Of a stretch of 64,000 nucleotides of DNA, positions 2,747-55,016 are shown in pieces. Made by a program: the position numbers and the translations under genes. Numbering within the stretch: the stretch's first letter is position 1; every line of letters begins with the position of its first letter. The notes beneath the pieces are model-generated. The model was not told the DNA's origin. It saw only the letters and a list, made by a program, of their open reading frames with translations, and did not search any database. The DNA is from an uncultured Gemmatimonadales bacterium (lineage in GTDB: Bacteria; Gemmatimonadota; Gemmatimonadetes; Gemmatimonadales; GWC2-71-9), in assembly GCA_963779755.1 (NCBI GenBank), contig CAVZZO010000001.1, positions 640,001-704,000 on the forward strand. The letters are read 5' to 3'.

Positions 2747-2900
2747 TCAGCCATTCTTGTCACTCCGTGGCGGGCTCCCGGCGACCAGCATACGCTCTGC
2801 GAAGTCGAGGCGTTCCTGCAGTTCGGCCACCTGTGCGCGCATATCGTTGAGACCGTCAGTCAGCGCGTCGACCGCCGCTCCCGCAGCAAGCCCCGGGGCT
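2747..2900 (-). pseudogene. Small coiled-coil protein or remnant (ELQERLDFAERML)
   Basis: Only the C-terminal motif is recognisable; no clear start. Confidence 0.35.
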
Positions 2901-2966
2901 CCCAAAGTCGCCCGCGTGCAAGATATCCCGCGCGGCCGTGACGTGCGAACGCTCCGCTCAGCTACG

Positions 2967-4950: not shown

Positions 4951-5900
4951 TCAGTCTTCCCGCGGACTCGCGCGGACAATGTCATCATCCAGGCCGGGAA
5001 GCACCCACAACGCCGCCAATCGCCACTCGCCCGCCTGGCGGGCCAGCACCCAGGTACCGCGGGCGTACCGTACCGGTACCAGCCGCGCCGCGGCTTGCGG
5101 CAGTGCACCGGTGCCGATGACGTTGAGCAGGGCCACATCGGGTGCGATCATCCGGATCTGATCGACAATCATGAGCGCCCGGTAGGGCCGGGGATCGCCG
5201 AAATAGGTGCGCCACCAGCGGCGAATGGCGTCGCGGCCGCGGATCGGCGGGAGATTGCGGATGAGGATTTCCGCATCGGGCCGGTAGAGGGCGCTCAGAG
5301 CTGCCGGGTCGTGGGCATTGAAGGCGTCTTCGTACGCCGCCACAAAGGCCCGCAGACCGGGCCGGAACGCTTCGGCGGCTTCACGGGAGTCATGGAGAAT
5401 CACCTGGTCCGCTTCCGTGGGCAGGCCGCGCATGGCCGCAATGCACCAGGCGCTGTCCTGCCGGTGCCAGAGCCAGGTCCCCCGGAACTTTCTGGCCCGC
5501 AGCGGGCCGCCCTGGTCATCCTGTCCGCCGGTTGTCGTCCCGACCGTCATCACGGCGACGTCGGGCGTAAGGAAGCTGACCGGACTCACGTCCAGCGTCA
5601 GCTGCCGGCCGGGTTCCTGCCGCCTGAAGTACTCCCGCCACCAGTCCCCGATCTGCCGCCGGCCGCTCACCGCCGGCAGGTTGCCCATGACGAAGTCCGC
5701 GTCCTCGGTAAAGAACGCCGAGAGCGCCCGCCCGTCGTGTGTATTCCAGACGTGCACGTAGGCTTCGGTACGCGCCTGGAGGGCAGCGCTGTCCCGGGCG
5801 GTCTGTGCCGGCAGGGCGCTGGGCCAAGCAGCGAAGCACAGGATCGTTGCCAGCGTGGCGCCGCAGGCGGCCGTCAGGTGTGGACGTCCAGATCTCGCCA
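4951..5900 (-). CDS. Secreted tandem NTF2-like (SgcJ/EcaC, DUF4440) protein
   Basis: Two repeats of WN/FNxHD..FTEDA..G R..I..WW..PDVA..W. Start chosen at MARSGRPH. Confidence 0.75.
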
Positions 5901-6009: not shown

Positions 6010-6294
6010 TGCCCCTTCCGGGGTTCCGATAGGTGAGGTGGTTCTCAATACCCGCATCATAGGCGTTCGGCCCCAAAGCCTCCTTCTTACCCTCTCTATG
6101 TAGGGTCCAAGTTGCCACACGATGTTGCCGGCGGTCAGCGCTTCAAGTGTCGCAAGGTCATGTTCCTTGCTGGCCCGGGCATACCGCTCGAACTGTTGGA
6201 CCACGCCAGGGGGGTGGACGCACCCCGCCAGCGTCAGCGACGCGGCCGAGAGCAGAACACCTGGAACGGCGAAGCTCCAGAAACGCGTCGTCAT
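6010..6294 (-). pseudogene. Truncated NTF2-like lipoprotein, probable former cassette gene
   Basis: Lipobox LAGC, RBS, preceded by core site GTTAGAC (6323-6329); frame degenerates after about 65 codons. Confidence 0.45.
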
Positions 6295-6433
6295 GTCTCC
6301 AATCTTCTCATCCTTCTTGCCCGTCTAACGGCGAATGAGTTCAGCGGCTGTGCCCGGCAGCGTTTGAGAGCTACTCACCTAACGGACGGCCCGCGTGTTG
6401 GGACCCGGCGACGCAAACGGAGCCGCCCCCCTA

Positions 6434-6895
6434 TCAATGCTCCGTCCCGGGCATTATTCCAATCTGCCGGAGAAAGGCCACATTGTCCCAGCTCACCCAG
6501 GTCTCGGCGATCTTCCCGTCCTCGAGCCGCTGGATGACGATGTTCACCAACTCGAACTTCTTCCCCGTGGCCGGTAGATCTCCGAGCGCACCGACCTGGG
6601 TTCCGGTCATGGTCTCGACGTAGGCGACCCGGTCGCCGTCGGCGATCATCTGGCTGAGGGTGTCGTGGTGATCCGGCACCGCCTGGAGCCAATCCCGGAT
6701 GAAACCGAGGAACTCCTTCGTCCCCTGGAGCTCCTGGAGTTCGGGGGGCATGGCCTGGCAGTGGCGGACGTAGCTCGGCGAGAGCTCGGCCGCGAAGGCT
6801 TCGACGTTGCGGTCGTTCAGTGCCTCATGGGCTCGTCGAACCACCTCCACGTTGCGGTCTTCGGTCTCTTCGCGCGTCGGGTTCCCGGGCTCCAT
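6434..6895 (-). CDS. SnoaL-like ester cyclase
   Basis: AVPDHHDTLSQMIADGDRVA..TGTQVG..PATGKKF..EDGKIAETW. Confidence 0.9.
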   Translation of the reverse strand: MEPGNPTREETEDRNVEVVRRAHEALNDRNVEAFAAELSPSYVRHCQAMPPELQELQGTKEFLGFIRDWLQAVPDHHDTLSQMIADGDRVAYVETMTGTQVGALGDLPATGKKFELVNIVIQRLEDGKIAETWVSWDNVAFLRQIGIMPGTEH

Positions 6896-7055
6896 GTCTG
6901 CCTCCTTTGCTCCGGCAACGGTGACTGCGTCCAATCGCCGCCGCGTCACTCCGGGATCGTCATCAGGCCCCGGATCATCGCAGATTCCGGCATCCGCTCC
7001 GCAGAATGCTTCTCAGGAAGCAGGTAGCCTTTCGAGCACTGCGTTCTGCAGTGCC

Positions 7056-7176
7056 GCCTGGCGCATCTTGGACCTGCAAGGACCACCTCCTCCAGTCCCG
7101 AAATCATCTTACGAACCGCTACCGAATTCCACAACGTTGCCAACGGCCCCGCCGCGAGCAGGCCCGGCGGGCTCCG
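7056..7176 (-). other. Degenerate attI + Pc + intI 3' tail module (copy 4)
   Basis: TTGGACCTGC motif, TTGTGG-17-TAAGAT (7134-7106), tail RSPPGLL; core decayed to GCCAGGC. Confidence 0.7.
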
Positions 7177-7304
7177 CCGGCCGGGGTTGTCACGGCTGAG
7201 TACGCTGCCCAGCCGCCCCGAGAGAAGGCAGGTAGAGCACAGAAGTATCGCATCAGACTCTGGCAAGTCTGCCGCGGGCGGGGAAGGTGGCTGGCGGGGA
7301 TTCT

Positions 7305-7350
7305 TCATTTCAGTGACAGGCATGGCCGAGACACGGCTTCGGTCGAGAGG
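7305..7350. repeat. CTTCAG double-palindrome element (degenerate copy)
   Basis: Similar to copies at 31908, 37006, 39001 and 40457. Confidence 0.6.
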
Positions 7351-7369
7351 GGGATCCTGGCTCCAGTTC

Positions 7370-8282
7370 GAAAGGGCTGTCACCCTGAGGCCGCGCCAGC
7401 GGCCGAAGGGGCCGAAGCTGAAGGCTGGCTTCGGTCCCTTCGCTGCGCTCAGGGTGACCTAACCCCCGTCCCCCTTCCCGGTTGGGAAGGGGGGACCGGG
7501 GTGGCCAGTTCGGAGAGAAGATGGAACCGGGACGGGCGGTGCGAAAGGGCTGTCACCCTGAGGCCGCGCCAGCGGCCGAAGGGGCCGAAGCTGAAGGCTG
7601 GCTTCGGTCCCTTCGCTGCGCTCAGGGTGACCTAACCCCCTGTCCCCCTTCCCGGTTGGGAAGGGGGGACCGGGGTGGCCAGTTCGGAGAGAAGATGGAA
7701 CCGGGACGGGCGGTGCGAAAGGGCTGTCACCCTGAGGCCGCGCCAGCGGCCGAAGGGGCCGAAGCTGAAGGCTGGCTTCGGTCCCTTCGCTGCGCTCAGG
7801 GTGACCTAACCCCCTGTCCCCCTTCCCGGTTGGGAAGGGGGGACCGGGGTGGCCAGTTCGGAGAGAAGATGGAACCGGGACGGGCGGTGCGAAAGGGCTG
7901 TCACCCTGAGGCCGCGCCAGCGGCCGAAGGGGCCGAAGCTGAAGGCTGGCTTCGGTCCCTTCGCTGCGCTCAGGGTGACCTAACCCCCTGTCCCCCTTCC
8001 CGGTTGGGAAGGGGGGACCGGGGTGGCCAGTTCGGAGAGAAGATGGAACCGGGACGGCCGGCTCGAAAGGGCTGTCACCCTGAGGCCGCGCCAGCGGCCG
8101 AAGGGACCGAAGCTGAAGGCATAATCTCGGCCCCTTCGCTGCGTTCAGGGTGACAATCCAGTGCGCCTCCGGCGCTCGCCGCGTATCGGCCAGCATCCCT
8201 GTCACCCTGAGGCCGCGCCAGCGGCCGAAGGGGCCGAAGCTGAAGGTACGGTTTCGGCCCCTTCGCTGTGCTCAGGGTGACA
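7370..8282. repeat. Tandem REP/BIME-like mosaic, 173-174 bp period
   Basis: GTCACCCTGAG..CTCAGGGTGAC palindromes start at 7379, 7552, 7726, 7900, 8074 and 8201. The first four are each followed by a CCCCCTTCCC-GGGAAGGGGG hairpin. Confidence 0.95.
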
Positions 8283-8311
8283 ATAAGCTCTGTCTCCGCG
8301 CCCGGCCCCTC

Positions 8312-8345
8312 TTGACAACGCCAGGCAGTTTGACGATCATCAAAC
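8312..8345 (+). promoter_or_regulatory. Sigma70-like promoter with palindromic ArsR-type operator
   Basis: TTGACA-17-GATCAT; GTTTGA-N6-TCAAAC at 8328-8345, with a related copy at 8690-8707. Confidence 0.6.
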
Positions 8346-8346
8346 C

Positions 8347-8655
8347 ATGACGACCCGGGCCGCCCCTCCAACCCTCACCAGCCGGCAATTCGAGCTGGTG
8401 GCCAAGGCACTCGCCGATCCCCGGCGCATGCAGCTGCTGGAGGCGATCTCGAGCACGCGGGAGTTTCCCTGTTCGCGCCTGTGCGAGCTGTTCCCCGTCT
8501 CCAAGGGGACGATCTCCCACCATATGAAGGAACTGCTGCGGGCCGGCCTGATCAACGCGCGGCGGGAAGGCCAGCATCTGCTCTACGAAGTGCGCCGGGA
8601 GACGCTGGATGCCTATACCAACGAATTGATGAGACGCCTGGGCCAGGCCGGGTAG
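8347..8655 (+). CDS. ArsR/SmtB-family regulator
   Basis: KALADPRRMQLL..SKGTISHHMKELLRAGLI..REG. Confidence 0.93.
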   Translation: MTTRAAPPTLTSRQFELVAKALADPRRMQLLEAISSTREFPCSRLCELFPVSKGTISHHMKELLRAGLINARREGQHLLYEVRRETLDAYTNELMRRLGQAG

Positions 8656-8733
8656 GCCGCAGCAGGTGGGCTCTTTTTTTTAACTTAGTGTTTGATAGTT
8701 GTAAAACTGTTGTACAGCACGACCGGGCGAGGA

Positions 8734-17303: not shown

Positions 17304-17485
17304 GTATGAAGCCGTGGCCGCCAGCACTGAAGTTGTGGGCTTCGCGATGGCTGACCGCCGCCCATTTTCTGGGAACCCGCGCTCGGAAGCCGGGCCGCCG
17401 GCCGGGCCAGCGGCTGAAGGGTTGGAGCTGAAGATATGGTTTCGGCCCCTTCGCTGCGCTCACGGCGATAACGTGCGTCCGGCGC

Positions 17486-22810: not shown

Positions 22811-23113
22811 GGCTAACGGCCTGCGTTTCAGCCGCGGCGGCGCCGGAGCCCACCACCGCCGGCACGGCGCCTTGGCCGCCGGCCCCGGCACCTGGGCGGC
22901 GCGGGGTGGGGCTCAAAGCCCGGGTCCGCCGCGGGCGTCGTTTCCGGTCCGATTCGCGCCCCCCGCCAGCAGCGGAGGCCGGCCGGCCGGAGCTTTTGGT
23001 GAGCTTACTGCGGGGAGCCTGGGGTCGCTAGAGGGAAGCTGGCCCGGGGCAAAAACCTGGAGGCCGTTCCGGAGTCTCCCAAGAATCGGCGCGCGGAACC
23101 CGGTGGCTCGTGT
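22811..23113 (-). other. Decayed ORF-less cassette with degenerate attC, related to the 455-bp cassettes
   Basis: The first ~70 nt after attI align with the cassette at 50723; GGCTAACGGCCTGCGTTTCAGC arm at 22811. Confidence 0.55.
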
Positions 23114-23245
23114 GGCTAACAGGTATTGGACCTGCGTACCCATCCCACTGAACCGCCGACCGACTAGAAATTATCTTACGGTCCGCAGCCTGATTCCACA
23201 ACATCGCCGCGGAGGCTCGCCCAGGAGATCTGCCGGGCTCCGAAG
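23114..23245 (-). other. attI + Pc + intI 3' tail module (copy 3)
   Basis: GTTAGCC core, TTGTGG-17-TAAGAT (23201-23173), tail LRSPADLLG; cut by a REP. Confidence 0.85.
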
Positions 23246-23338
23246 CGGCCGAAACTGAAGGCACGGTTCCGGCTCCTTCGCTCCGTTCAGGATGACAGCC
23301 CGTGCATCTTCCCGCCTTCCCGCACGACTAGCCCGCAC

Positions 23339-33250: not shown

Positions 33251-33339
33251 CGCCGATTGGACCGGCCAGGACGGCTGAGGCTGCGTTACAGGGTGCGCCG
33301 ACCGTCATGTACTCGACGTGGATGGTGGTGTCAGGTGCT

Positions 33340-33425: not shown

Positions 33426-33506
33426 GGGGCTGAGCGCCCGCTGGGTTGCAGGGCCGACGAAGCCCAGGGTGGCGAGATCATACCCGGAAGCAACGGCGTG
33501 GCCGAA

Positions 33507-33643
33507 CCTACGTGAACGGGGAACGTGCGGGCATAGGCAGACTTTTCGTCGGGGGTCATGGCGCGGCTCCGGGTGGAGGGAATCACAGGAGTCGCGGAAG
33601 GAGCTACGGGCCGCGCAGCGGCGTCAAGCGGGTATAGATGTCT
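33507..33643 (-). mobile_element. 5' end fragment of the IS110-family element, abutting an attC R'' box
   Basis: Identical to 46651-46787; followed by AGTTAGGC (33644-33651). Confidence 0.9.
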
Positions 33644-33665
33644 AGTTAGGCGGCAATGGTCAGCT

Positions 33666-36753: not shown

Positions 36754-36839
36754 CTATCGACTCCTCCTTGACTCAACGGGCGTTGGCGGCGATTCCCGAT
36801 GGTTCGCAAAAGAACGATCGCAAGGAAGGCTATTCCGCA

Positions 36840-37000
36840 GGCTAACGCAGATTGGACCTGCAGGAACCACGTCCCCCCCAGCCATCCCGAAATTATCTTA
36901 GGGGCCGCCACCTGAATTCACAACATTGCCAACCGGCCCCGCCGCCGGCAGGTCCGCCGGGCTCCGTATACCCTGGCCGCCACGGTTGAGGACGTGGGTA
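36840..37000 (-). other. attI + Pc + intI 3' tail module (copy 2)
   Basis: GTTAGCC core, TTGTGA-17-TAAGAT (36923-36895), tail [18 protein letters not shown]. Confidence 0.88.
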
Positions 37001-38067: not shown

Positions 38068-38940
38068 GTCATTGCGAGGGCGCGCAGCGCCCGTGGCAAT
38101 CCCACCGCTTCCGGCGGGGAGCTCCCCACCTCACCGCTTGCTCCTCACGCTCACCGCCGACCTAACCCCCTGTCCCCCTTCCCTGTTGGGAAGGGGGGAC
38201 CGGGACGACCAGTTCGAAGAGAAGGGGGAACCGGGACGGCCGATGTAAAAGAGGCTGTCACCCTGAGGCCGCGCCAGCGGCTGAAGGGGCCGAAGCTGGA
38301 GGATGGCTTCGGTCCCTTCGCTGCGCTCAGGGTGACAACCCCCTGTCCCCCTTCCCTGTTGGAAAGGGGGGACCGGGACGGGCGGTGCGAAAGGGCTGTC
38401 ACCCTGAGGCCGCATCAGCGGCCGAAGGGGCCGAAGCTGGAGGATGGCTTCGGTCCCTTCGCTGCGCTCAGGGTGACCTAACCCCCTGTCCCCCTTCCCT
38501 GTTGGGAAGGGGGGACCGGGACGACCAGTTCGAAGAGAAGGGGGAACCGGGACGGCCGGTGTAAAAGAGGCTGTCACCCTGAGGCCGCACGTGCGGCCGA
38601 AGGGGCCGAAGCTGGAGGATGGCTTCGGTCCCTTCGCTGCGCTCAGGGTGACCTAACCCCCTGTCCCCCTTCCCTGTTGGGAAGGGGGAACCGGGACGGC
38701 CGGTGCGAAAGGGCTGTCACCCTGAGGCCGCATCAGCGGCCGAAGGGGCCGAAGCTGAAGGACGGTTTCGGTCCCTTCGCTGCGCTCAGGGTGACCTAAC
38801 CCCCTGTCCCCCTTCCCTGTTGGGAAGGGGGAACCGGGACGGCCGGTGTAAAAGAGGCTGTCACCCTGAGGCCGCACGTGCGGCCGAAGGGGCCGAAGTT
38901 GAAGGATGGTTTTCGGCCCCTTCGCTGCGCTCAGGGTGAC
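38068..38940. repeat. Second REP/BIME-like tandem mosaic
   Basis: REP starts at 38257, 38398, 38573, 38716 and 38860 (141-175 bp spacing). Confidence 0.95.
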
Positions 38941-39000
38941 ATTACGCGCGCCGCCGGCGCTCATTGCCCGGGCGCGAGAGACACCCAGCGCCGCGATCCT

Positions 39001-42779: not shown

Positions 42780-43061
42780 TCAAATGCAGGAGAACACATG
42801 TTCCTCTCGAAAATCAATAGCAGATCCTGCAGTGAGCCCTTTGAAGTCAGCGGCGTTCCAGTCTTCGAAGCCAATTATGGTGCCGGAGATCGCTCCTCCG
42901 AGAACACGCACTACTTGAACGACGAGGATAACCCGCCCGTCCCGAAGGGAGACTTGGGCACCAACACGGATGGTCGAAGGGACTGCCGTACCGGGAGCCT
43001 GAAAGCCCCCGAACACGATAGATCTGTCTGCACGGGTGGCGAGTGCAAGCGGTTCATTCAT
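42780..43061 (-). CDS. Hypothetical cassette protein
   Basis: About 93 aa ORF co-oriented with the array. Confidence 0.55.
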   Translation of the reverse strand: MNEPLALATRADRSIVFGGFQAPGTAVPSTIRVGAQVSLRDGRVILVVQVVRVLGGAISGTIIGFEDWNAADFKGLTAGSAIDFREEHVFSCI

Positions 43062-43306
43062 GGGTCGCTTCGACTCCGAAGACTTTAGAATGCGGCTGAA
43101 TGCGATTTGGCACAATGCGGCTACTTGGCACCGGTACCCGACTGGGCTGTGAACCGGCGCGCGAGCTTCAAGTCCTTGTGCGCTTTATGCTTGCGTGTGA
43201 TCTTGTGATTCCTTGCTCGGGCAATGCGGCAAAAAAGAGGCCGGAGGCCGTGCGCGCATTTGCCGCGCGGTGTTGGGTGACTGCGTTTCGTACGAAAGGC
43301 CGCGCC

Positions 43307-43410
43307 GCCTAACGAAATGCGTTTCAGCCGCGAAGGCGCGGCCCTAGCGCCCGGAGGGCTTTTTTGAGCGGGTGCGCCGCGCCTTCGCCGTCTGCAAACG
43401 CTTGTTAGGC
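43307..43410 (-). other. attC site
   Basis: GCCTAAC..GCGTTTCAGCCGCGAAGGCGCG / CGCGCCTTCGCCGTCTGCAAACGCTTGTTAGGC. Confidence 0.92.
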
Positions 43411-43709
43411 CTCCCGGCCAGCCGGCTCCGGCGACGTTCGGTCTCGACCCGATCGGCAAGGTACACCTTGAGCAGACTCTGATAGGGGACATCCCGCTCG
43501 TTGGCGAGCAACTTGAGCTCGGTAAGCAGGGTATCGGGCAGCCGGACCGAAATGGCTGTGGACGAAGGCCGGAGATGGGGAAAGCGCATCACCCGTGCCT
43601 TCGACCAATCCACATATTCGGTCGAGTCATGCGTGGCCCAGAAGTCGCGCTCCTCGTCCTCAGTCCGGAAGGTCGGGATGTTCTTCAATGCTCGCTTGGG
43701 CTTGGGCAT
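43344..43709 (-). CDS. brnA: BrnA/CopG-like antitoxin
   Basis: IPTFRTEDEERDFWATHDS..ISVRL..VPYQSLLK. Confidence 0.88.
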   Translation of the reverse strand: MPKPKRALKNIPTFRTEDEERDFWATHDSTEYVDWSKARVMRFPHLRPSSTAISVRLPDTLLTELKLLANERDVPYQSLLKVYLADRVETERRRSRLAGRPNKRLQTAKARRTRSKKPSGR

Positions 43710-44013
43710 ACTGGTGCCGCTCCTTCCGATTCATGTCCCGGGCCGCGATCACGCGAATCAGAGATCCGCGCACCGTGAAGACGAGGTAGAGCCTCCGGTT
43801 CGCGAGGGTCCGGCCGAGCGCTTGCCACCGGAGCTCGGTGCCGGAGTGCTTCGCATCGAATGCGGCGACCAGAGGTTCCTGAAAGAACGCCTGTTCGCAC
43901 TCCCCCGGCTCCACGTTGTGGCGCGCCAGCACTTTGGGCGCGTTGCCGGCGTCCCATTCAAAGCCGGTGCAGCGGCCCAGAATCGCGTAGGCGTCCGGCG
44001 GCTCTCCCGTCAC
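43660..44013 (-). CDS. brnT: BrnT-family toxin
   Basis: GFEWDAGN..KHS..LVFTVRG..IRVIAARDM. Confidence 0.9.
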   Translation of the reverse strand: MTGEPPDAYAILGRCTGFEWDAGNAPKVLARHNVEPGECEQAFFQEPLVAAFDAKHSGTELRWQALGRTLANRRLYLVFTVRGSLIRVIAARDMNRKERHQYAQAQASIEEHPDLPD

Positions 44014-44019
44014 TCAGGA

Positions 44020-44048
44020 AGTATATGTGGGGTATATACGCCAGTCAA
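44020..44048 (-). promoter_or_regulatory. Sigma70 promoter of the TA cassette with palindromic operator
   Basis: TTGACT-17-TATACT; GTATAT-N7-ATATAC. Confidence 0.8.
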
Positions 44049-44071
44049 CCGGTAGGCTCCGCCATCCGGAG

Positions 44072-44202
44072 GCCTAACGAAGTGCGCGTCAGCTGCAGCG
44101 CGATGCTTTAGGTCTTCACAAACTACGCTTCCTTAGCCGCGCCGCTAGGAACTCCGGATGATGCGACCGGCCCGCGCGACTGGCCTGCCAGCTGGACGCG
44201 CT
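44072..44202 (-). other. attC major part; its R'' box is displaced to 46788-46795
   Basis: Paralogous to the attC at 48001-48140 but stops at GACGCGCT. Confidence 0.85.
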
Positions 44203-44203
44203 C

Positions 44204-44658
44204 ATGTACGCGGATCCTTTCGGGCTGCTTGCCCAGGATTGTTGTATCGAAACGGGGGATTGGCGAAAGGATAACCTGCTTCACCCTGCTGTTACAGCGG
44301 CAAGAGAGACAACCCGATGCTGGGAGTAGCTGTGGGTCTCCTGGCCGTTGCAGGTGGGGCCGAACTGGCTGCTCCCAGGTTATTTGCCGCGGCCACCGCT
44401 GCTCTTCCTAAGGTACCGTTTGAGAAATTCCAGGACTGGGGACGAAATGTTGTCCAATGGGGCCGTGGGGCAGCGGGGGCAATTCAGCGGGTTTCTGAAG
44501 TGACGGCCGAGCAGGCCTCTAAATTGGATCCACAGAAAGTGAAGATGGCTCGCGACTTCTACCAGAAAGCTGTTGATGCTGGCCGAGGGGGAGCCGCCGC
44601 ACCTGAACGAGTAAAGCTGATGGAACGCATTTTAGACCTGCAGCAGAGAACCCATTAG
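44204..44658 (+). CDS. Orphan Rhs C-terminal toxin-like domain (one frameshift near 44275)
   Basis: Starts (L)MYADPFGL (Rhs DPxGL motif); the C-terminus WGRG..RDFY..RVKLM resembles DUF4951-like tips. Confidence 0.6.
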
Positions 44659-44704
44659 TGGCTCGGTCCGGTCTATTCGAGCATTGCAACACGGAGGAAG
44701 AGCC

Positions 44705-44953
44705 ATGCTGGAAGCAGCGGTCACACTTCGGCTTACGAATAGATGCGAAACTGCGCGGAAGCTCGTGATTGAGCCATGGACCACCGAGTTTCGACTGCAA
44801 CCTGGGCACACTTACGACTTGGTGATATCAGGGGACCTTGGCCTCCCCTTAGAGGTTGAGTTCGAGGACGACGAACTAACCGTATACACTTTCGATTCCG
44901 CCAATGCCTCCTTCAAGATTTCCGAAGGCGGGGCTGAACTTAAACCACTGTAG
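44705..44953 (+). CDS. Putative immunity protein
   Basis: Small acidic ORF with RBS GGAGG directly after the toxin tip. Confidence 0.55.
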   Translation: MLEAAVTLRLTNRCETARKLVIEPWTTEFRLQPGHTYDLVISGDLGLPLEVEFEDDELTVYTFDSANASFKISEGGAELKPL

Positions 44954-45437
44954 GAGCCCGGCCCTGTCTAGCCTGGGGCGCTCGGGGCGCCTCCGGGTTG
45001 TCGGGCCTGAACTCCGAGGGGTCGGGTCTAGTAGGAGCCTCGCGGGCTGCCGCGCGTGGCGGACCTCGGCCGGCGGAAAAGGAAAGTGGTGGGGGCCCCA
45101 CGAGTTCAGCGGAACCCATCGGCTCCAGACCTGCCGCGAGCCGGCTCCCTCGTCGGGCGTCATGCGCCCACGGGAGCAGACGGGGTCACCCCACCGGCTC
45201 CAAGGTGCTACCCGGTCCTTCGATTGTCAAAGAGCGCCGCGTTCCGCGTGCCGGCGGGATCCTGGCACCACCCTCATAGGTCGTTGAGGCTCGGGGCCTC
45301 CCACATCTTCATGGATGCTCTCCGATCCGCGGCCGGGCGGCCAGCAACTCTGTGCGCGGAACTCACCGAAGACGCCGGCGGCTCAAGGCAAATAGAGGGC
45401 GGCCCGGCGCGCACGCGCGGCTCCCCCCGGTCTCCGA
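44954..45437 (-). ncRNA. Long 3' non-coding end of the IS110 element, candidate bridge/seek RNA region
   Basis: About 480 nt without a credible ORF after the recombinase stop; the 5' leader is only about 83 nt. Confidence 0.45.
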
Positions 45438-46703
45438 CTATTCGATCACCACCGGCTCTGCGTGATGCCGCTGGGTCTCCCAGCGCTCCCGGTCGAACGG
45501 CTGGCCCGACTGGAGCACGGCCAGGAGGAGCGGCACCAGCTTGCGGGCCACCGCGCAGACCGCCTTGGTCCGGAGCCCGCCATTGCGGGCCAGCAGGGCC
45601 TGGTAGACCCCGGTACAGCCCCCGGGGCTGGCACCAGCGGCCGCCGAGCAGAAAGAGTTGGCGGCGCAGCAACGGCCGGCCCCGTTTGGACTGCTTGCGC
45701 CGGCCCTGCACCGTGCCGCTGGAGCGCTCGACCAGATTCATGCCTGCGAGTTTCAGCACCTGGCGGGGATGAGTGAAGCGCTCCGGAGCGCCCAGCTCGG
45801 CCACGATCGTGGCCGCACAGGTGGCGCTCACCTCGGGAATGGTGGTCAGCGCCTTGGCCGCGGGGCACTGCTCCACCGAGCGCGGCGATCTGCTGGTCCA
45901 CCTCCGCGAGTTGCGCCCGCAGCAGGTCCCAGCGGGCCAGCAGCTGCTGGATCTCCAGCGCCGCTCGGGAGCGGCGCCGGCCAGGGCGACACTGGTGCGG
46001 GCGGACTCGCGCAGGACGTGGAGCTGCCCTGGGCTCACGTGGCCCCGCGAGACGGACCGCGCCAGGCGAGTCACCGCGGCCGGGGCGGCCGCCAGGAAGT
46101 CCTGCGGCAGCGGCCAGCGCGCCAGCAGGGCGCGCGGCGTGGGCTTGCGCACCTGCGAGAAGTGCGTCAGGAACTCGGGCCAGGCCAGGTCGAGCAGGCT
46201 CTGGAGACGGTTCTTGAACCGGGTTTCCTCGACGGTGAGCCGATGACGGTGGGTGGTGAGCAGCCGCAGCTCGAGATACGGGGGCTGCAGCGCCGGATAT
46301 CCCACGAAGATCCCCAGGCTCACCAGCTTGCAGATCTCGGCGGCATCCTTCGCGTCCGTCTTGTTGGGGCTGTTATCCTCCAGTTCCTTGGCCCGCTTGG
46401 TGTGGGCCGGCAGGATATTGACCAGCGCATAGCCGCGCGCCCGCAGGCACTCGGCAAACGTGAAGCCGTGATGGCCGGCGAACTCCAGCCCCACCAGCAT
46501 CTGGCCGGGCCGGATGCCGGGAAACCAGGCCGTCAACTGCGCGCGGCGGCCTCGAAGCCCGCGCGGCTCACCGGCACTCGGACCGGCTTCGTGCGGCGCC
46601 CATCGGGGCCCTGAGCAACCAGCACGTGGACCCGCTTCGCGGTATCCACGCCTACGTGAACGGGGAACGTGCGGGCATAGGCAGACTTTTCGTCGGGGGT
46701 CAT
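45438..46703 (-). CDS. IS110-family recombinase/transposase (several frameshifts)
   Basis: DEDD residues VGVD, GLE, KTDAKDA; Tnp20 motif LAG..SSG..SKRG; ARKL. Confidence 0.9.
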
Positions 46704-46789
46704 GGCGCGGCTCCGGGTGGAGGGAATCACAGGAGTCGCGGAAGGAGCTACGGGCCGCGCAGCGGCGTCAAGCGGGTATAGATGTCTAG

Positions 46790-47530
46790 TTAGGTAGCAC
46801 CACGAATCAGACGGCGGCCGTGAGGAGTGAGTTCCGCGTGTCTGACGCTCCCAATCTGGTAGTCCCCGGGACCTCCTGTGGTAATGATTCCGAGGTCTTT
46901 CAAGCCGCGCAAGATCAGATCAAGTCGCGCAACCGGGATGCCCGTCACCTCAAGCACCGTGGTCGTGTGAAGTCGGTACTGGTCTGGCGTCAGGGTGCGG
47001 AACTGGGCAAGTACCGCAGCCACCTCGGCGGCCGAGTCCACATCTGGGAGTAGCGACGGAGCAAGGGCGATGTATGTGCCAGGCACGAGGCGCGTTCGCG
47101 CGATTCCGACAGCGTGATTCAAGTCTGGATCAATACGAATGAAGCCGAAATCGCGAAGATCCTCCGCTGCCTCCAAGTACTCATGCGGCGAAACATCCAA
47201 ATCGGTAATGGCATCCTCTGCTTCAGCAAACTGGAACAGCTGGCTGGCCTCGCGATAGAGGCAGTAGGCCAGCAACCGCAGGGGCGTACCAGAAAGGCGG
47301 ACGAATGGAACTTGAATTGCTTCGAGCGCGGTCACGCGCTCTTCGAGACTGCCAACCCGGACACCGAGTTTCGATACCTGCTCATTCGCTACGCCGTAGC
47401 CGCCCAGGGCGGCAAGACGCGCTACCAAGGACGCCACGCCCGAAATCGGCTCGACAACCAAGGCCACGCCAGTGAGTGTCCACGCAGCGATGGTCGGCCA
47501 ATCGAGGCTCGAATCCTTTGCTGAGGTCAT
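46790..47530 (-). CDS. Hypothetical cassette protein
   Basis: MTSAKDSS start just after the attC at 47546; stop codon in the R'' box. Confidence 0.8.
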   Translation of the reverse strand: MTSAKDSSLDWPTIAAWTLTGVALVVEPISGVASLVARLAALGGYGVANEQVSKLGVRVGSLEERVTALEAIQVPFVRLSGTPLRLLAYCLYREASQLFQFAEAEDAITDLDVSPHEYLEAAEDLRDFGFIRIDPDLNHAVGIARTRLVPGTYIALAPSLLPDVDSAAEVAAVLAQFRTLTPDQYRLHTTTVLEVTGIPVARLDLILRGLKDLGIITTGGPGDYQIGSVRHAELTPHGRRLIRGAT

Positions 47531-47545
47531 CCCGCCTCGTAGTGC

Positions 47546-47685
47546 TACTAACGAAGTGCGTTTCAGCGGCGGCGCGATGCCCCGCTCCCTCACATCCGAC
47601 GCTTCCTTACCGCGACCGCTAGATGTCCCAGAAATGCACCAGCGGGCTGCAGCACCGTGCCCGCCGCTGCAAACGCTTGTTAGCT
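47546..47685 (-). other. attC site
   Basis: TACTAAC..GCGTTTCAGCGGC / GCCGCTGCAAACGCTTGTTAGCT. Confidence 0.92.
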
Positions 47686-48000
47686 GCCGGCCGCAATGAC
47701 AATTTCGGGTGCGATGACGCTGCCGGTATGTGCGGAGCCCCCGCGCCGGGAGACCGGGCCGCCAACCGGGAGCCTCGGCGGGGCGGGAGAACGCTGGACG
47801 CCTCCGAACCTGCTCGGCGCACCTTCCTTGCCATGGAGCGCCCCGCGGAGAGAAACCTTGGGCGGCATCGCGGAGCCTTCCAGGCGTCCCGCGCAAGGAG
47901 GCCGGTGCCGCCTCACCGCTACCAACCAACTGCAGAGTTCCGGCGGCACCACCAGGCGCCCACCAAGAGATCAGCACTGGGCGGCCCGACTGGCGCGTGC
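47686..48000 (-). other. ORF-less cassette, diverged copy
   Basis: Colinear with 49950-50262 and 50405-50717. Confidence 0.8.
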
Positions 48001-48140
48001 AGCTAACGAAGTGCGCGTGTGCTGCAGCGCGATCCCTCAGGATTTCACAAACCTACGCTTCCACAGCCGCACCGCTAGGAGGCCCGAGTGGGGGCCGGCG
48101 GCCCGCGCGACCGGCCTGCAGAACGACGCGCTTGTTAGGC
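48001..48140 (-). other. attC site
   Basis: AGCTAAC..GCGCGTGTGCTGCAG / CTGCAGAACGACGCGCTTGTTAGGC. Confidence 0.9.
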
Positions 48141-48142
48141 CC

Positions 48143-49226
48143 CGCGGATTCATATACTAAGTGCAACAACGGAAGGCGACGAAAGCGGTGATCTGACAGC
48201 AAGTAGACTTCTCTGTCCGCCAAGACAAGGAAGCCGACCATGAACTACCGCCAGATCACCGCCGCTGAACGGTACACCCTCGGCCTGCTTCGCCGACAGG
48301 GGCTGACGGCGGCAGCCATCGCGCGCCTCCTCGGTCGCCACCGCAGCACCATCGGCCGCGAGGTCCGGCGCAACCGCACCCACCACGACGGGGGCTACCG
48401 CCCCCAGCTCGCCGACTGGTACGCGCGGGGCCGGCGGAGCCACTCGCGCCGCAACACCCGGTTCACCGCCACGGATTGGGCGGAGGTGGAACGCCTGGTG
48501 CGCGAGGACTGGAGCCCCGAACAGATCGCCGGCCGCCTCGCCGCGGACGGACACCTCGCCATCAGTCACGAGACGATCTATCGGTACGTCTGGGCGGACC
48601 GCGCGGACGGCGGCACGCTCTACCAGCACCTCCGCGGCGCCCGCAAGCAGCGCCGCAAACGGTACGGGCGCTACGACAGCCGGGGCCGCCTGGCCGGGAA
48701 GCGGATGATCACGGAGCGGCCTGCGATCATCGAAGGCCGCAGCCAGGTCGGTCACTGGGAAGGCGACACCGTCCTCGGCGCGGGACAGGCCGGCCCCTGC
48801 GTGCTGACGCTGGTGGAACGGAAGACCGGCTATCTGATGCTCGGCCAACTCCACCAGCGGACGACCACCGCCGTCACGCGCCGGGCGACCCAGCTGATTC
48901 ATCGGGAAGCTCGCCCGGTGCGCACCATCACCGTGGACAACGGCACCGAGTTCCATGACTACGCGGCGATCGAACGGGAGACCGCCACGCGCTTCTACTT
49001 CGCCACGCCGCACCACAGCTGGGAGCGCGGAACCAACGAGAACACCAACGGCCTGCTGCGGCAGTACCTCCCGAAAGGCCACTCTATGGCGCACCTCACC
49101 CAGGCCGCGTGTGATCGCCTCGCCCGCAAACTCAACCGCCGACCCCGGAAGCGCCTCCTCTACCGCACCCCGGAGGAATGCTATGCACGATGAGGCTCAG
49201 TGTTGCACTACAAACTTGATATCAGA
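48143..49226 (+). mobile_element. IS30-family insertion sequence
   Basis: Imperfect terminal IRs ..AGTGCAACA / TGTTGCACT.. flanking the transposase. Confidence 0.9.
48240..49193 (+). CDS. IS30-family DDE transposase
   Basis: WSPEQI, SHETIY, GHWEGDT, TVDNGTEF, WERGTNENTNGLLRQY. Confidence 0.96.
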   Translation: MNYRQITAAERYTLGLLRRQGLTAAAIARLLGRHRSTIGREVRRNRTHHDGGYRPQLADWYARGRRSHSRRNTRFTATDWAEVERLVREDWSPEQIAGRLAADGHLAISHETIYRYVWADRADGGTLYQHLRGARKQRRKRYGRYDSRGRLAGKRMITERPAIIEGRSQVGHWEGDTVLGAGQAGPCVLTLVERKTGYLMLGQLHQRTTTAVTRRATQLIHREARPVRTITVDNGTEFHDYAAIERETATRFYFATPHHSWERGTNENTNGLLRQYLPKGHSMAHLTQAACDRLARKLNRRPRKRLLYRTPEECYAR

Positions 49227-49807: not shown

Positions 49808-49949
49808 GCCTAACGGTCTGCGTTTCAGCGGCGGCGCGATGCCCCGCTCCCTCATAATCCTACGCTTCCTTACCGCGACCGCTAGATGTCCGAGCAATGC
49901 ACCAGCGGCCTGCAGCACCGTGCCCGGCCGCTGCAAACGCTTGTTAGCT
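49808..49949 (-). other. attC site (142 bp)
   Basis: GCCTAAC..GTTAGCT with CGTTTCAGCGGC / GCCGCTGCAAACG arms. Confidence 0.92.
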
Positions 49950-50723
49950 GCCGGCCGCAATGACATTCTCGGTTGCGATGACGCTGCCGGCAGGTGCGGA
50001 GTCCCCACCCCGGGAGGCCCGGCCGCCCCCTCGGAGCTCCGGCGGGGCGGAAGATCGCTGGACGCTTGTCCACCGGGAACGACGCTGACCCTGCCCCGAC
50101 CGCCCCGCGGGGAGGGGCCCCGGGCGGCATGGCGGAGCCTGCCAGACGACCCGCGCAAGGAGGCCGGTGCCGCCTCACCTCCGCCAACCAGCTGAGGAAC
50201 TCCGGCGGCACCACCAGGAGCCCACCAAAAGATCAGCACTGGGAGGCCCGGCTGGCGCGTGCAGCTAACGGTCTGCGTTTCAGCGGCGGCGCGATGCCCC
50301 GCTCCCTCATAATCCTACGCTTCCTTACCGCGACCGCTAGATGTCCGAGCAATGCACCAGCGGCCTGCAGCACCGTGCCCGGCCGCTGCAAACGCTTGTT
50401 AGCTGCCGGCCGCAATGACATTCTCGGTTGCGATGACGCTGCCGGCAGGTGCGGAGTCCCCACCCCGGGAGGCCCGGCCGCCCCCTCGGAGCTCCGGCGG
50501 GGCGGAAGATCGCTGGACGCTTGTCCACCGGGAACGACGCTGACCCTGCCCCGACCGCCCCGCGGGGAGGGGCCCCGGGCGGCATGGCGGAGCCTGCCAG
50601 ACGACCCGCGCAAGGAGGCCGGTGCCGCCTCACCTCCGCCAACCAGCTGAGGAACTCCGGCGGCACCACCAGGAGCCCACCAAAAGATCAGCACTGGGAG
50701 GCCCGGCTGGCGCGTGCAGCTAA
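49814..50723 (-). repeat. Two identical tandem 455-bp ORF-less cassettes (array positions 1 and 2)
   Basis: Exact 455-bp period bounded by GTT core sites. Confidence 0.92.
50263..50404 (-). other. attC site (142 bp)
   Basis: AGCTAAC..GTTAGCT, internally identical to 49808-49949. Confidence 0.92.
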
Positions 50724-50804
50724 CAAATATTGGACCTGCGTACCTCCCATTGAACTCCCGACCAACCAGAAATTCATCTTACGGTCCGCAGTCTAATTCC
50801 ACAA
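50718..50804 (-). promoter_or_regulatory. attI site and Pc-like promoter downstream of intI
   Basis: GTTAGCT core without an attC partner arm; TTGTGG-17-TAAGAT at 50804-50776. Confidence 0.85.
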
Positions 50805-50806
50805 CA

Positions 50807-51784
50807 TCACCCCGTCTGGCCCAGCAGGTCCGCGGGACTCCGTACCCCCAGGCCGCCCCGGTTCAGGACATGGGTGTAGATCATCGTGGTCGAGACATCC
50901 CGGTGGCCCAGGAGCTCCTGTACGGTCCGGATGTCGTAGCCCGCCTCCAGCAGATGCGTGGCAAAGCTGTGCCGCAGGGTGTGACAGGTCGCCCGTTTGC
51001 CGATACCGCTGGCCCGCACCGCCTCCGCCATGGCCCGCTGCACTGCGGTCTCGTGGTAGTGATGCCGGCGCAGCTGCCCCGAGGCCGCGTGACGATGCCG
51101 CCGCCGAGCCGGAAAAACCCACTGCCAGGGCCAGGAGCATCCCGCTCGCGGATACTTCCGCTCCAGGCCATCGGGGAGCTCGACCCAGCCCGCCCCCTCA
51201 GCCAGATCCCGCCGGTGCCGCTCCCGCACCCGCTCCAGGTGGAGATGCAACGGCTGACGCACCGACTGCGCCAGGACGGTGACCCGATCCTTGGCGCCTT
51301 TGCCTCGGCGCAGCCGTATCTCCCCCCGTTCCAGGTCCAGATCCTTGACCCGCAAGGTGAGGCACTCAAGCAGCCGCAGGCCACTGCCATAGAGCAGGGC
51401 GGCTACCAGCGCCGAGACGCCACGCAGGTGTGCCAGTACGCTCCGGACTTCTCCCGGCGTCAGCACGACCGGCAGGCGCACCGGAGCCTTCGGCCGGGGA
51501 ATGCTCCCCATGTCCACCAATGGCCGCTCCAGGACCTCGGAGAAAAGGAACGAGAGGGCCGCCTGCGCCTGCGCCTGAGTTGAGGCGGAAACGTGCCGCT
51601 CGATGCGCAGATCGGCCAGGAATTGGAGTACTTCTTCCCGCCCCAGTTCCGCCGGAGGACGGAGGCCGTGAAACCGCACAAACCGCCGAACCCAGCCCAC
51701 GTAGGCCTCCTCGGTCCGCGGGCTGAAGTGCCGTAGCCGCAGGTTGAGCCGCAGGGCCTGCAGCAGTTTCGGTTTGGACTGCAT
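50807..51784 (-). CDS. intI: Integron integrase
   Basis: [13 protein letters not shown], integron-specific insert [43 protein letters not shown]. Confidence 0.97.
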
Positions 51785-51884
51785 GAGAGTATCCCCGCGG
51801 AAATCCACAAGCTTGATCCGCGACGCCTTTCCACCCGTACCCCGCCAATGCCGAGAGGACCGAAAACGCCCGCGAACTCCTCCC

Positions 51885-52891: not shown

Positions 52892-53882
52892 GCGCCATAG
52901 ACGTCCAGAGCATCACCCGGAAGTTCGGCGACTTCACCGCGGTGGACGCGCATCTCCTTCGAGGTGGAGGAGGGCGAGATCTTCGGCCTCCTGGGCCCCA
53001 ACGGGGCGGGGAAGAGCACGCTGATCCGCATGCTCACCACCCTGCTCAAGCCCACCGCCGGCACCGCGGTGGTGGGCGGGTACGACGTGGTGCGCGAGGC
53101 CGACAAGGTGCGGCGGGTGATCGGGGTGATCCCCCAGGCGCTCACCAGCGATCTCGACCTGTCGGTGGAAGAGAACCTGCTCATCTTCGCCAAGCTCTAC
53201 GGCGTGCCGCGCTCGACGCGGAAGGACCTGATCGCCCGGCTGCTGGAGGCGGTGGAGCTGTCGAAATGGGCCGACAAGCCGGTGAAGAACCTCTCCGGCG
53301 GCATGCGGCGCCGGGTGGAGATCGCCCGCGGGCTGGTGCACCAGCCGCGCATCCTCTTCCTGGACGAGCCCACCACCGGGCTGGACCCGGTCTCCCGCAC
53401 CGCCGTCTGGGAGATGCTGCGCGAAGATCAAGGCGGAGCACGACCTCACGGTGCTGCTCACCACCCACTACATGGACGAGGCCGACCGGCTGTGCGACCG
53501 GGTGGCCATCGTGGACCACGGGCAGCTGCTGGCGCTGGACTCGCCCATCCACCTGAAGGCGGCGATCCCGGGCGAGAACACGCTGGACGTGAGCTTCGAG
53601 CAGCCGCCCGCCGGCTGGGCCGAGCGACTGCGGAGCCTGCCCGGGGTGGAGAGCGTGGACGGGGAGGGAGCGGTCTACCGCATCCTTTCCGGCAACGGCC
53701 CCGCCACCACCACGGCTCTCCTGGGCCTGGCCGCCGGGCAGGGCGTCGCCATCCGGTCGCTGGGCGTGCAGAGCACCACGCTGGACGATGTGTTCGTGCA
53801 CTACACCGGTCACGAGCTGCGGGACGAGCTGGTGGAGGCCTCGGCGCTGGACCGGAGCGTCATCGCCTCGCGGAGGCGCTGA
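52888..53882 (+). CDS. ABC transporter ATP-binding protein (frameshifted)
   Basis: GPNGAGKS, LSGGM, FLDEPT, TTHYM. Confidence 0.9.
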
Positions 53883-53885
53883 GCC

Positions 53886-55016
53886 ATGGAGCGGATGTGG
53901 GCCATCGTGGAGCGGGACATGCGGCGCTTCCGCCGCAGCCCGATGCTGATCTTCGTCTCGCTCATCTTCCCCATCGTGCAGCTGGTGGTGCTGGGCTACG
54001 CCTTCGGCGGACAGGTGAAGCACCTGAAGCTGGGCGCTGGTGGACCAGGACGGCCACGTCCCCGCCGTCCAGCTCCAGGCCCTGGGGAACGCCATCACCG
54101 CCAACGCCAGGACCTTCTCTTTCATTAGATACGACGACCAGGGCCGGGCCCTCACCGCCCTGCGCAACGGCCAGCTCAACGGCGTCCTGACCATCCCGCC
54201 CGGCTTCTCGCGCCGAGTGCTGGCGGGCGAGTCGCCCAGAGTGGCGCTGATCGAAGACAACACCGACAACTTCGTCGCCTCCGCCCTGGCCAACAGCGTG
54301 AACGGCATGGTCCGCGCCTACGGAGACCCGCTCCCGTCTTCCTCCCGTCCAGTCTCCCGTCTTTCTTCCCGTCCTTCTCTCGACATCGTCGAGCTCTACC
54401 CCTACGTCCCCTACATCCAGTACCTGCTGCCGGGCAGTATCGTCATGTCCATCTTCATGATGGTGATGATCGGCGGCGGGATCATCTTCATCGACGACAA
54501 GGCGCGGGGGCTGCACGAGGGCTACCTGGTCACCCCCATCACCCGGTTCGAGCTGATCCTGGGGTTCAACGTGGCCGGTGCCGCCAAGGCGATCATGGCC
54601 GGCACGGTGCTGATGCTGGTGGGCTCGGTGATCGCCGGGATCCCCAACCCCTGGGATCCGCTCCGGCTGCTGCGGCTCCTGGTGGTGGTGGCGGCGGCGT
54701 CGGTGGCGCTGGTGAGCATGATGTTCCTCTTCATGGTGCGGATGAGCGATCCGCTGCTGCCCCGGGCGCTCTTCGGCGTGCTCAACACGCTGCTCTTCTT
54801 CCCCAGCGGCGCGGTCTATCCCCAGCAGGCCTTCCCCGGCTGGATGCGGGTGATCGCCAAGGTGGATCCCGTTCACCTACGCGGTGCACGCGCTGAAGAG
54901 CCTGCTGCTCAAGAACACCGGCTTCAGCGCCATCTGGCTCGACCTGGCCTATCTGGCGCGCCTTCGCCGCGGTGACCATGACGGCGGCGACGCTCCTGTT
55001 CCGGAGAGAGCTGTGA
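53886..55016 (+). CDS. ABC-2 type permease (frameshifted)
   Basis: GYAFGG, YLLPG, GYLVTP, FPSGAVYP. Confidence 0.88.

Follow-up and report, generated by a model that had tools for sequence, protein, structure and literature searches.

The window analysed here is a stretch of 64,000 nucleotides (nt) from an uncultured Gemmatimonadales bacterium (assembly GCA_963779755.1, contig CAVZZO010000001.1, positions 640,001-704,000), in which an integron recombination site (attC) is interrupted by a 2585-bp insert (44203-46787) containing an IS110-family insertion sequence (IS), the orphan C-terminal tip of an Rhs protein and a small open reading frame (ORF). The IS lineage inserts at a fixed place beside one attC R box of a Gemmatimonadota-like chromosomal integron. 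As for the insert as a whole, our analyses lead us to favor, at a little under an even chance, a composite IS110-family element that entered the attC together with rhs DNA from its flank. This is the simplest reading of the locus because it joins three facts, namely the exact restoration of the attC with CT ends when the insert is removed, the ending of the conserved IS 0.75 kb inside the insert, and the same order, orientation and spacing of IS end, small gene and Rhs tip in a related locus, L001, from a second genome, where the tip is attached to a full-length rhs core outside an integron.

Insertion into an attC site

The larger part of the interrupted attC (44072-44202, no strand assigned) ends in ..GACGCG-CT, with the CT at 44201-44202, shares 79% identity over 131 nt with the attC at 48003-48132 and aligns with five sister attCs. 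The insert starts at 44203 with CATGTACGCGGATCC, and the R box that the left part lacks, AGTTAGGT, is found at 46788-46795 (no strand assigned) immediately after a second CT (46786-46787), leaving a CT at each outer junction; the corresponding sequence of the sister attC at 48125 is GACGCGCTTGTTAGG. When 44203-46787 was removed in silico, the joined attC stood in register with the five sister sites and folded into one long imperfect hairpin with both R boxes paired (-28.6/-30.3 kcal/mol, vs -30.6/-30.1 kcal/mol for a sister attC); in the left part alone, the R-box pairing was lost and the hairpin was not closed. The site has the features of an integron attC, with inverse R boxes closing an imperfect hairpin, recurrence of the repeat between cassettes and an integron integrase gene (intI) nearby. 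The break point lies 3 nt inside this R box, which also supplies the stop codon of the upstream cassette ORF (46790-47530, minus strand). Insertion mediated by the integron integrase was considered and rejected, as crossover in the R box takes place at G|TT and the break lies elsewhere.

The same junction occurs a second time in the window. A truncated copy of the IS left end (33507-33650, minus strand, with IS sequence to 33641) is followed by CT and the AGTTAGG of another attC, the whole stretch of 144 nt matching 46651-46794 with 100% identity; this copy comprises the last 135 nt of the element and lies beside another cassette. Both copies in the window are thus placed at CT|AGTTAGG, with no target duplication beyond the CT core, as is typical of site-specific insertion in the IS110 family, and because the second copy adjoins the same CT-AGTTAGG the placement is site-specific rather than due to chance. 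To the left of the second copy, no preserved right-end junction was found, and a separate short attC-like site ends near 33428. An occurrence of TCATGTAC at 33305, near this copy, was set aside as a chance 8-mer match, there being no Rhs homology at that place.

These results bear out the structural part of the initial annotation, which had described an IS110-family element inserted into an integron attC, the missing box of the site lying 2585 bp further on after a second CT, and had read the codons from CTC-ATG-TAC to GGG-CTG as LMYADPFGL. All of these sequence statements could be reproduced; the family is supported by the transposase domains, the setting by the fixed attC position and the 425-bit score of the integrase, and the proposal that the two halves form one attC by the single hairpin in register with the five sisters.

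The IS110 element and its right end

The gene for a DEDD transposase of the IS110 family occupies 45438-46703 on the minus strand, and its main frame carries both family domains (PF01548, E 1e-16; PF02371, E 5e-16), an N-terminal piece scoring 17.3 bits, below its cut-off. The gene is read in four frame segments which, with four frameshifts (near 46540, 45962, 45875, and 45608) and a handful of substitutions, map onto P0126, an intact relative of 422 amino acids (aa) from another assembly that is 98% identical to the longest segment. The lineage is abundant, with 656 proteins at E ≤ 1e-30 among the 8000 candidates scored, mostly of 416-427 aa among the 120 listed, and the few source names given among these relatives are "IS110 family transposase" of Gemmatimonadota. 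As assembled, with four frameshifts in the transposase and one in the Rhs tip, this copy of the IS is apparently defective. The frameshifts may be either real decay or local consensus errors; if they are real, the element would be immobile on its own, and supply in trans of an intact, near-identical transposase, such as P0126 from another assembly, is conceivable. A frameshift is also present outside the IS, in an ABC ATPase gene whose ABC_tran and DrrA-type C-terminal domains lie in different frames (52901-54187 and 53286-53879, plus strand). Other large genes of the window are undamaged, among them those for a 1030-aa AcrB and a 706-aa amidase.

The left end of the element consists of 82 nt plus the second CT (46704-46787, minus strand) and is identical in the second copy (33507-33643). 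On the other side, 3' of the transposase gene, lies a non-coding region of about 480 nt (44955-45437, minus strand), a candidate for a guide (bridge/seek) RNA, which is conserved with positions 5038-5601 of L001. This relative, a contig of a Gemmatimonadota metagenome-assembled genome, was the only relevant one of two loci returned by a genome-contig search with a single protein fragment, a search that finds close relatives only; its transposase is 61% identical at the protein level and scores 174.6 bits against NF033542 (cut-off 140). DNA similarity to L001 spans the transposase gene and the non-coding region, where long shared blocks alternate with variable stretches. In L001, the terminal unit of the non-coding region, of about 55 nt, is tandemly duplicated (~5505-5601), and the IS copy is a 5'-truncated remnant that has lost the left end and some 22 codons. 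RNAalifold, applied to only these two sequences, gave a common fold with 55 pairs, 7 of them compensatory; the region is probably structured and the common fold is of the kind expected for a guide RNA, although two sequences prove little. A search of Rfam with positions 43000-49000 at E ≤ 1 gave no match. Words of 7-9 nt that the non-coding region has in common with the target, with the left end, or with either candidate right end occurred at chance level (about 3.6 expected; shuffle p 0.11-0.99), and the one 9-mer that reached p 0.02, for one of five sites, does not recur in the flank of the second copy.

The right end of the IS falls well short of the outer junction at 44202/44203. Similarity to L001 stops at GCTAGA(C), corresponding to 44966-44972, and continues in weaker form for another 13-15 nt to about 44955; the dinucleotide CT occurs at 44947-44948 and at 44968-44969, and GTAGGAGCC occurs at 44950 and 45031. 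The boundary between the IS and the extra DNA is therefore placed between 44947 and 44969. Since conservation of the IS stops at about 44955-44969, and not at 44203, the Rhs tip is best regarded as add-on DNA beyond the canonical end rather than as a conserved part of the element. The short motif GTCTAG, found at 44967, 45026, and 46784, repeats the junction of the left end with the attC inside the non-coding region, as does GTAGGAGCC. The first of these junction-like motifs is situated between conserved blocks, where the sequences of the window and L001 diverge, and it may be a guide segment. No subterminal inverted repeats were found; the three sites considered as right ends gave inverted matches to the left end of 8-9 nt at best (shuffle p 0.69-0.97). 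In a plasmid collection, the L001 transposase retrieved 638 records, all below 60% identity (best 34%) and too distant for a definition of the ends.

It is useful to compare this element with the IS1111-attC group (ISPa21, ISPst6, ISKpn4, and ISPa25), with which it shares a DEDD transposase, a long downstream non-coding region, which yields the guide RNA in the known group, a single fixed place near the attC end and the absence of a target duplication (PMC11187229 and PMC3001079). Movement of experimental cargo by IS1111/IS110 elements and their requirement for RNA from the non-coding region have been reported in a study that also covers IS1111-type excision (Siddiquee et al., PMC11187229), where the transposases of the IS1111 family are given as 330-350 aa long. 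The transposase of the present lineage, on the other hand, has about 422 aa, the comparison being with the group as described, and the subterminal inverted repeats of the group are lacking. In addition, going by the strand of intI and of most array genes, the transposase gene here is oriented like the cassette genes, whereas it is described as antisense in the known group (PMC3001079), although the position near the 5' end of the attC fits; the host phylum is different, and passenger DNA is present here. Judged on its sequence, the element is of the IS110 type with a downstream non-coding region and, because it has no subterminal inverted repeats and a transposase longer than 330-350 aa, it is outside the known IS1111-attC group, though behaving alike.

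The Rhs tip and the origin of the extra DNA

The extra DNA amounts to about 0.75 kb (44203-44953) and differs in composition from the IS, with a GC content of 54-60% in 44200-44900 vs 69-77% in the IS. Most of it is taken up by the orphan Rhs tip (44203-44658, plus strand). The first bases of the insert, CATGTACGCGGATCCTTTCGGGCTG, encode MYADPFGL in the frame of the preceding CTC and open frame A (44204-44329), which is followed by frame B (44317-44658), an ORF of 113 aa with a Gly/Ala-rich stretch and a helical domain assigned to DUF4951 (E 3.7e-8; 33.8 bits, cut-off 27.3). A search of 1.84 billion representatives with the 113-aa ORF returned 103 proteins at E ≤ 0.001. Among those at E ≤ 1e-10, all 31 non-self matches end no more than 11 residues from the C-terminus, including in proteins of 469 to 877 aa, and lower-ranked homologues of 1271, 2475, and 2646 aa (E 3.7e-9 to 5.5e-5) likewise match at their extreme C-terminus. 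RHS repeats were detected in 7 of the 14 homologues scanned, and the DPxGL motif that marks the end of the Rhs core stands shortly before the domain in 8 of the 14 fetched (DPxG in 12). For example, MYADPFGL at 44204-44227 aligns with the ..NFSDPFGL.. of one homologue, P0006, whose residues 14-34 (..NFSDPFGLC..) were mapped by tblastn to 44195-44257 and whose domain was mapped in another frame to a segment starting at 44314 or 44323 and ending at 44649, which places a single frameshift between about 44258 and 44317. Homology to Rhs tips thus begins within about three codons of the 44202/44203 junction, and the junction itself lies eight codons upstream of the DPFGL| (GL) boundary. No intact frame joins the tip to an Rhs core; the tip is frameshifted and stands without one. 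An AlphaFold2 model of the tip domain is a five-helix bundle (pLDDT 84), the best match of which in the PDB is 2mmb, an uncharacterized Acinetobacter baumannii protein (E 0.014, TM 0.54), with no match at E ≤ 0.001. On this evidence, a single Rhs C-terminal tip, broken by one frameshift, occupies 44203-44658, and it is a putative toxin.

The tip is followed by an ORF of 82 aa (44705-44953, plus strand), read directly from the sequence, which starts 46 nt past the stop codon of the tip and has a GGAGG (44693-44697) 7 nt before its ATG, i.e. it occupies the position in which an immunity gene is expected. No Pfam or NCBIfam family was assigned to it, a homologue search returned only the ORF itself, the Atlas gave unnamed clusters with recognition below threshold, and there was no similarity to L001. 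We infer from its position that it is a candidate immunity gene, and, being intact, it could serve as an orphan immunity gene.

A possible source of this DNA is suggested by L001, where an antisense ORF of 198 aa is found 14 nt past the IS end (the stop codon of the small ORF in the window being 13 nt from it), followed by a long rhs gene that is cut off by the end of the contig, contains ..NNPVMFSDPFGL.. and scores 60.8 bits against Rhs_assc_core. A near-complete rhs-immunity operon hence lies against the right end of the IS, in the same orientation as in the window. No attC-like sequence was found in L001, indicating that the adjacency of IS and rhs occurs outside integrons. The main rhs gene of this contig (1-8748) is split over two frames (6906-8699 and 6076-7167); the contig also contains, by sequence look alone, a PIN-domain-like ORF (2888-3346) and, at about 2890-2700, a decayed orphan tip fragment with ..YDP..DPVGL and a tip. 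At the place equivalent to the outer junction of the window, the rhs frame of L001 continues without a visible junction, with GT and not CT before CATG, and both far sites share ..TCATG.. at corresponding codons.

The arrangement in L001, with an IS abutting an rhs-immunity operon in the orientation seen in the window, makes an origin of the extra DNA in an rhs locus plausible. In the explanation we favor, an ancestral copy of the IS would have resided in an rhs locus, its right end adjoining the immunity gene in the arrangement seen in L001; excision would then have used the proper boundary at the left end and a non-canonical CT about 0.75 kb past the right end, inside rhs and eight codons before DPFGL|, and the enlarged circle of 2.6 kb would have been inserted into the attC, guided by the RNA of the element. 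Such a capture matches, in our analysis, the "half-match" use of boundaries and the growth of cargo presented in two recent preprints on IS110 elements, one of which describes natural IS110 loci of 1 to 100 kb that gained DNA downstream of the transposase module with boundaries guide-matched on one side only (bioRxiv 10.64898/2026.08.14.744561), the companion naming half-match recombination (bioRxiv 10.64898/2026.08.31.748434). The likeness to the cargo-bearing loci of these preprints extends to the extra DNA downstream of the transposase and guide module, to one canonical boundary with another unlike the canonical end, and to the size, 2.6 kb being inside the reported continuum; the cargo there, however, consists mostly of plasmid-derived and resistance genes, whereas the present case is known from assembled sequence alone.

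Several observations weigh against this explanation. The far boundary has no similarity to the near one, and no guide segment of the non-coding region matches either candidate right end better than shuffled sequences do. The canonical right end is placed only to within 44947-44969, because L001 is the single relative with DNA context and its left end is missing. Both IS copies have an A directly after the second CT, vs T in all five aligned sister attCs, which means either that the element requires the rarer A or that the A is the element's own and the register is off by one; 13 other GTTAG sites, a raw list unchecked for attC status, are preceded by T in eight cases, by A in two, by G in two, and by C in one. 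The 2585-bp unit is known from the assembled sequence, and the four transposase frameshifts with few substitutions, together with the split ABC ATPase, leave room for errors in the assembly consensus.

The last of these points also feeds the view that no capture by the IS took place and that the tip module owes its position to an unrelated rearrangement or deletion, to homologous recombination between copies of the IS and a subsequent microhomology deletion, or to misassembled repeats. A multi-copy IS favors both recombination and assembly errors, the element has many frameshifts, and a CGCT microhomology is possible at the far junction. We nevertheless consider this very unlikely, as at least two independent events would have had to hit the same attC CT and restore the attC to the base, and as no other Rhs sequence is available in the 64 kb of the window, where 12 tblastn queries gave matches at E < 1e-3 only within 44302-44649.

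The inner boundary, on the other hand, lends itself to a different order of events, in which a plain IS of about 1.83 kb entered the attC first and a circle or fragment of 0.75 kb with the tip and the small ORF later recombined at the hybrid junction of IS right end and attC, again at CT. The inner boundary does carry a CT (44968-44969 or 44947-44948), so that the cargo is bracketed CT...CT, and the break in GC content coincides with it; stepwise gain of DNA downstream of the IS110 transposase module, with one-sided donor matches, is moreover reported in the first of the two preprints (n = 703, from a figure legend; bioRxiv 10.64898/2026.08.14.744561). However, no source circle is known, and the order, orientation, and spacing of IS, immunity gene and Rhs sequence in L001, where there is no attC, would be a coincidence. 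For this last reason, growth in place is ranked below capture, and we regard it as rather doubtful.

The far boundary raises the further question of whether the lineage carries Rhs tips and immunity genes habitually, with the coding sequence of the core end (..DPxGL) as a functional right boundary by which tips are moved between rhs genes and other sites. An Rhs tip and an ORF downstream of it do lie antisense beside the non-coding region in both members for which DNA context is available, the tip of the window begins within three codons of the junction, and the ..TCATG.. common to both far sites stands at corresponding codons. Yet the rhs frame of L001 is uninterrupted there, with GT instead of CT before CATG, the guide match at the far end is not above chance (shuffle p 0.11 and 0.67), and the sample consists of two members, one of them 5'-truncated; we therefore give this possibility little probability. 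A somewhat broader proposal, that the Gemmatimonadota IS110 lineage is a natural vehicle for polymorphic-toxin tips, which sits against rhs immunity genes, has a loosely recognized right boundary, cuts out tip plus immunity gene near the core end and delivers them under RNA guidance to attC sites or possibly to other rhs genes, also appears unlikely at present. To regard the cut as directed to the Rhs junction would be to conclude from a single case.

With regard to the cargo, the initial annotation fared unevenly. It was right in recognizing an Rhs toxin tip, as the DUF4951 assignment, the C-terminal homologues, the RHS repeats, and the upstream DPxGL agree on this. The "two-gene module" that it described is indeed antisense and does consist of the tip and the small ORF but comprises three ORFs (44204-44329, 44317-44658, and 44705-44953), because the tip carries a frameshift. 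Its "immunity gene" could not be substantiated beyond position, no homologue other than the ORF itself having been retrieved. The statement that the IS carries the tip stands insofar as the tip lies inside the CT-bounded insert, but it has to be amended to add-on DNA beyond the IS end conserved with L001 (44955-44969). Finally, the idea that the tip was lifted at the conserved Rhs junction gains plausibility from L001 as far as the rhs origin is concerned, but it involves one case in which the break lies eight codons upstream of GL, and L001 has no junction.

Integron surroundings and significance

The integron to which the interrupted attC belongs has its integrase gene at 50810-51808 on the minus strand (TIGR02249, 425 bits, cut-off 265; Pfam Phage_integrase and SAM_4), with the cassette array to its left and co-directional. 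Between 22 kb and 50.8 kb, 14 of the 16 Pfam-annotated genes are on the minus strand, as is intI, and the array is read as running leftwards on this strand, with intI transcribed toward the cassettes; it follows that the R box at 46788-46795 would be the start of the attC of cassette 46790-47530. A half R box at 50720 is joined to an element of about 100 nt abutting the end of intI. In all, a conserved element of about 100-130 nt is found four times (7020-7190, 23086-23256, 36812-36982, and 50690-50860), each time with a half R box (..CTAAC) before it, and at 50690-50860 it meets or overlaps the 3' end of intI and has the look of an attI-type site that includes part of the intI end. On that reading, the four copies would suggest several integron platforms or duplicated array heads, in an "inverted" layout with intI directed toward the cassettes. 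In canonical attC geometry, the bulged bases are on the opposite arm from that found in this attC family, where the sites at 43305, 44068, 47544, 48000, 49806, and 50261 have them on the 5' arm of the plus strand, i.e. 3' on the gene-coding minus strand; the attC strand deduced from structure is accordingly in conflict with that deduced from the orientation of the genes and intI.

The array contains other features of note. Adjoining the interrupted attC is a cassette encoding a BrnT/BrnA toxin-antitoxin pair with a CopG-type antitoxin (43344-44013, minus strand). A second kind of IS is represented by an intact IS30-family transposase gene (48240-49193, plus strand; HTH_38 and rve), which starts about 100 nt past the attC at 48003-48140. 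Positions 49810-50719, directly next to the attI-like site, hold a tandem pair of 455-bp cassette-like units that are 100% identical over 300 nt. Tandem-repeat arrays with units of 141-175 nt, a GC-rich hairpin and the motif GGGTGACCTAACCCCC are located at 7281-8300 and 38159-38960, and single copies of the GGGTGACCTAACCCCC-type repeat are found at 17388, 25780, 29307, and 40055.

Each ingredient of the interrupted attC is already described separately, that is, insertion sequences that target attC, capture of cargo by IS110 elements, and orphan Rhs tips. Classical orphan Rhs tips lie downstream of the main rhs gene and keep enough of the core for homologous recombination. The tip in the window resembles the orphan tip-immunity modules of Rhs and contact-dependent inhibition (CDI) systems in that it is a tip from the core end that has a small gene after it and is no longer joined to a full-length rhs gene, but it retains only eight core codons and is enclosed in an IS within an integron, whereas the orphan in L001 retains YDP..DPVGL. 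Another IS110-family element, ISPpu9, has a module downstream of its transposase gene and forms alternative circles with or without it, as well as with or without the transposase part (PMC12288879); that module consists of a gene for a small RNA between repeated IS-end boxes, as opposed to protein-coding rhs DNA with no repeated end sequence here. Our literature search found no publication combining attC-targeting IS, IS110 cargo and orphan Rhs tips, and in the main text, the part of bioRxiv 10.64898/2026.08.14.744561 to which this applies, the words toxin, Rhs, integron, and attC do not occur.

What is new is therefore an IS110-type, and not IS1111-type, lineage that targets attC sites in a Gemmatimonadota integron and, going by gene orientation, is co-directional with the cassettes, the kind of cargo it carries, an Rhs tip with a candidate immunity ORF, and a second genome with the likely source arrangement. 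Targeting of attC thus arose in an IS110-type lineage without the hallmarks of the IS1111-attC group. Because the copy looks defective, its effect at present probably amounts to no more than one disrupted attC and, possibly, an orphan immunity gene. If the capture proposed here is true, it would be a natural, non-clinical case of an RNA-guided IS110 element that supplied an integron with competition genes, namely those for a toxin tip and the likely antidote, and it would add one more class of cargo and one more class of target to the view of IS110 elements as growing platforms. The adjacency of IS and rhs in a second genome raises the question of whether Rhs tips are moved regularly by these elements; if the lineage did act as a vehicle for them, toxin and immunity alleles would be exchanged in a site-specific manner, independently of homologous recombination.

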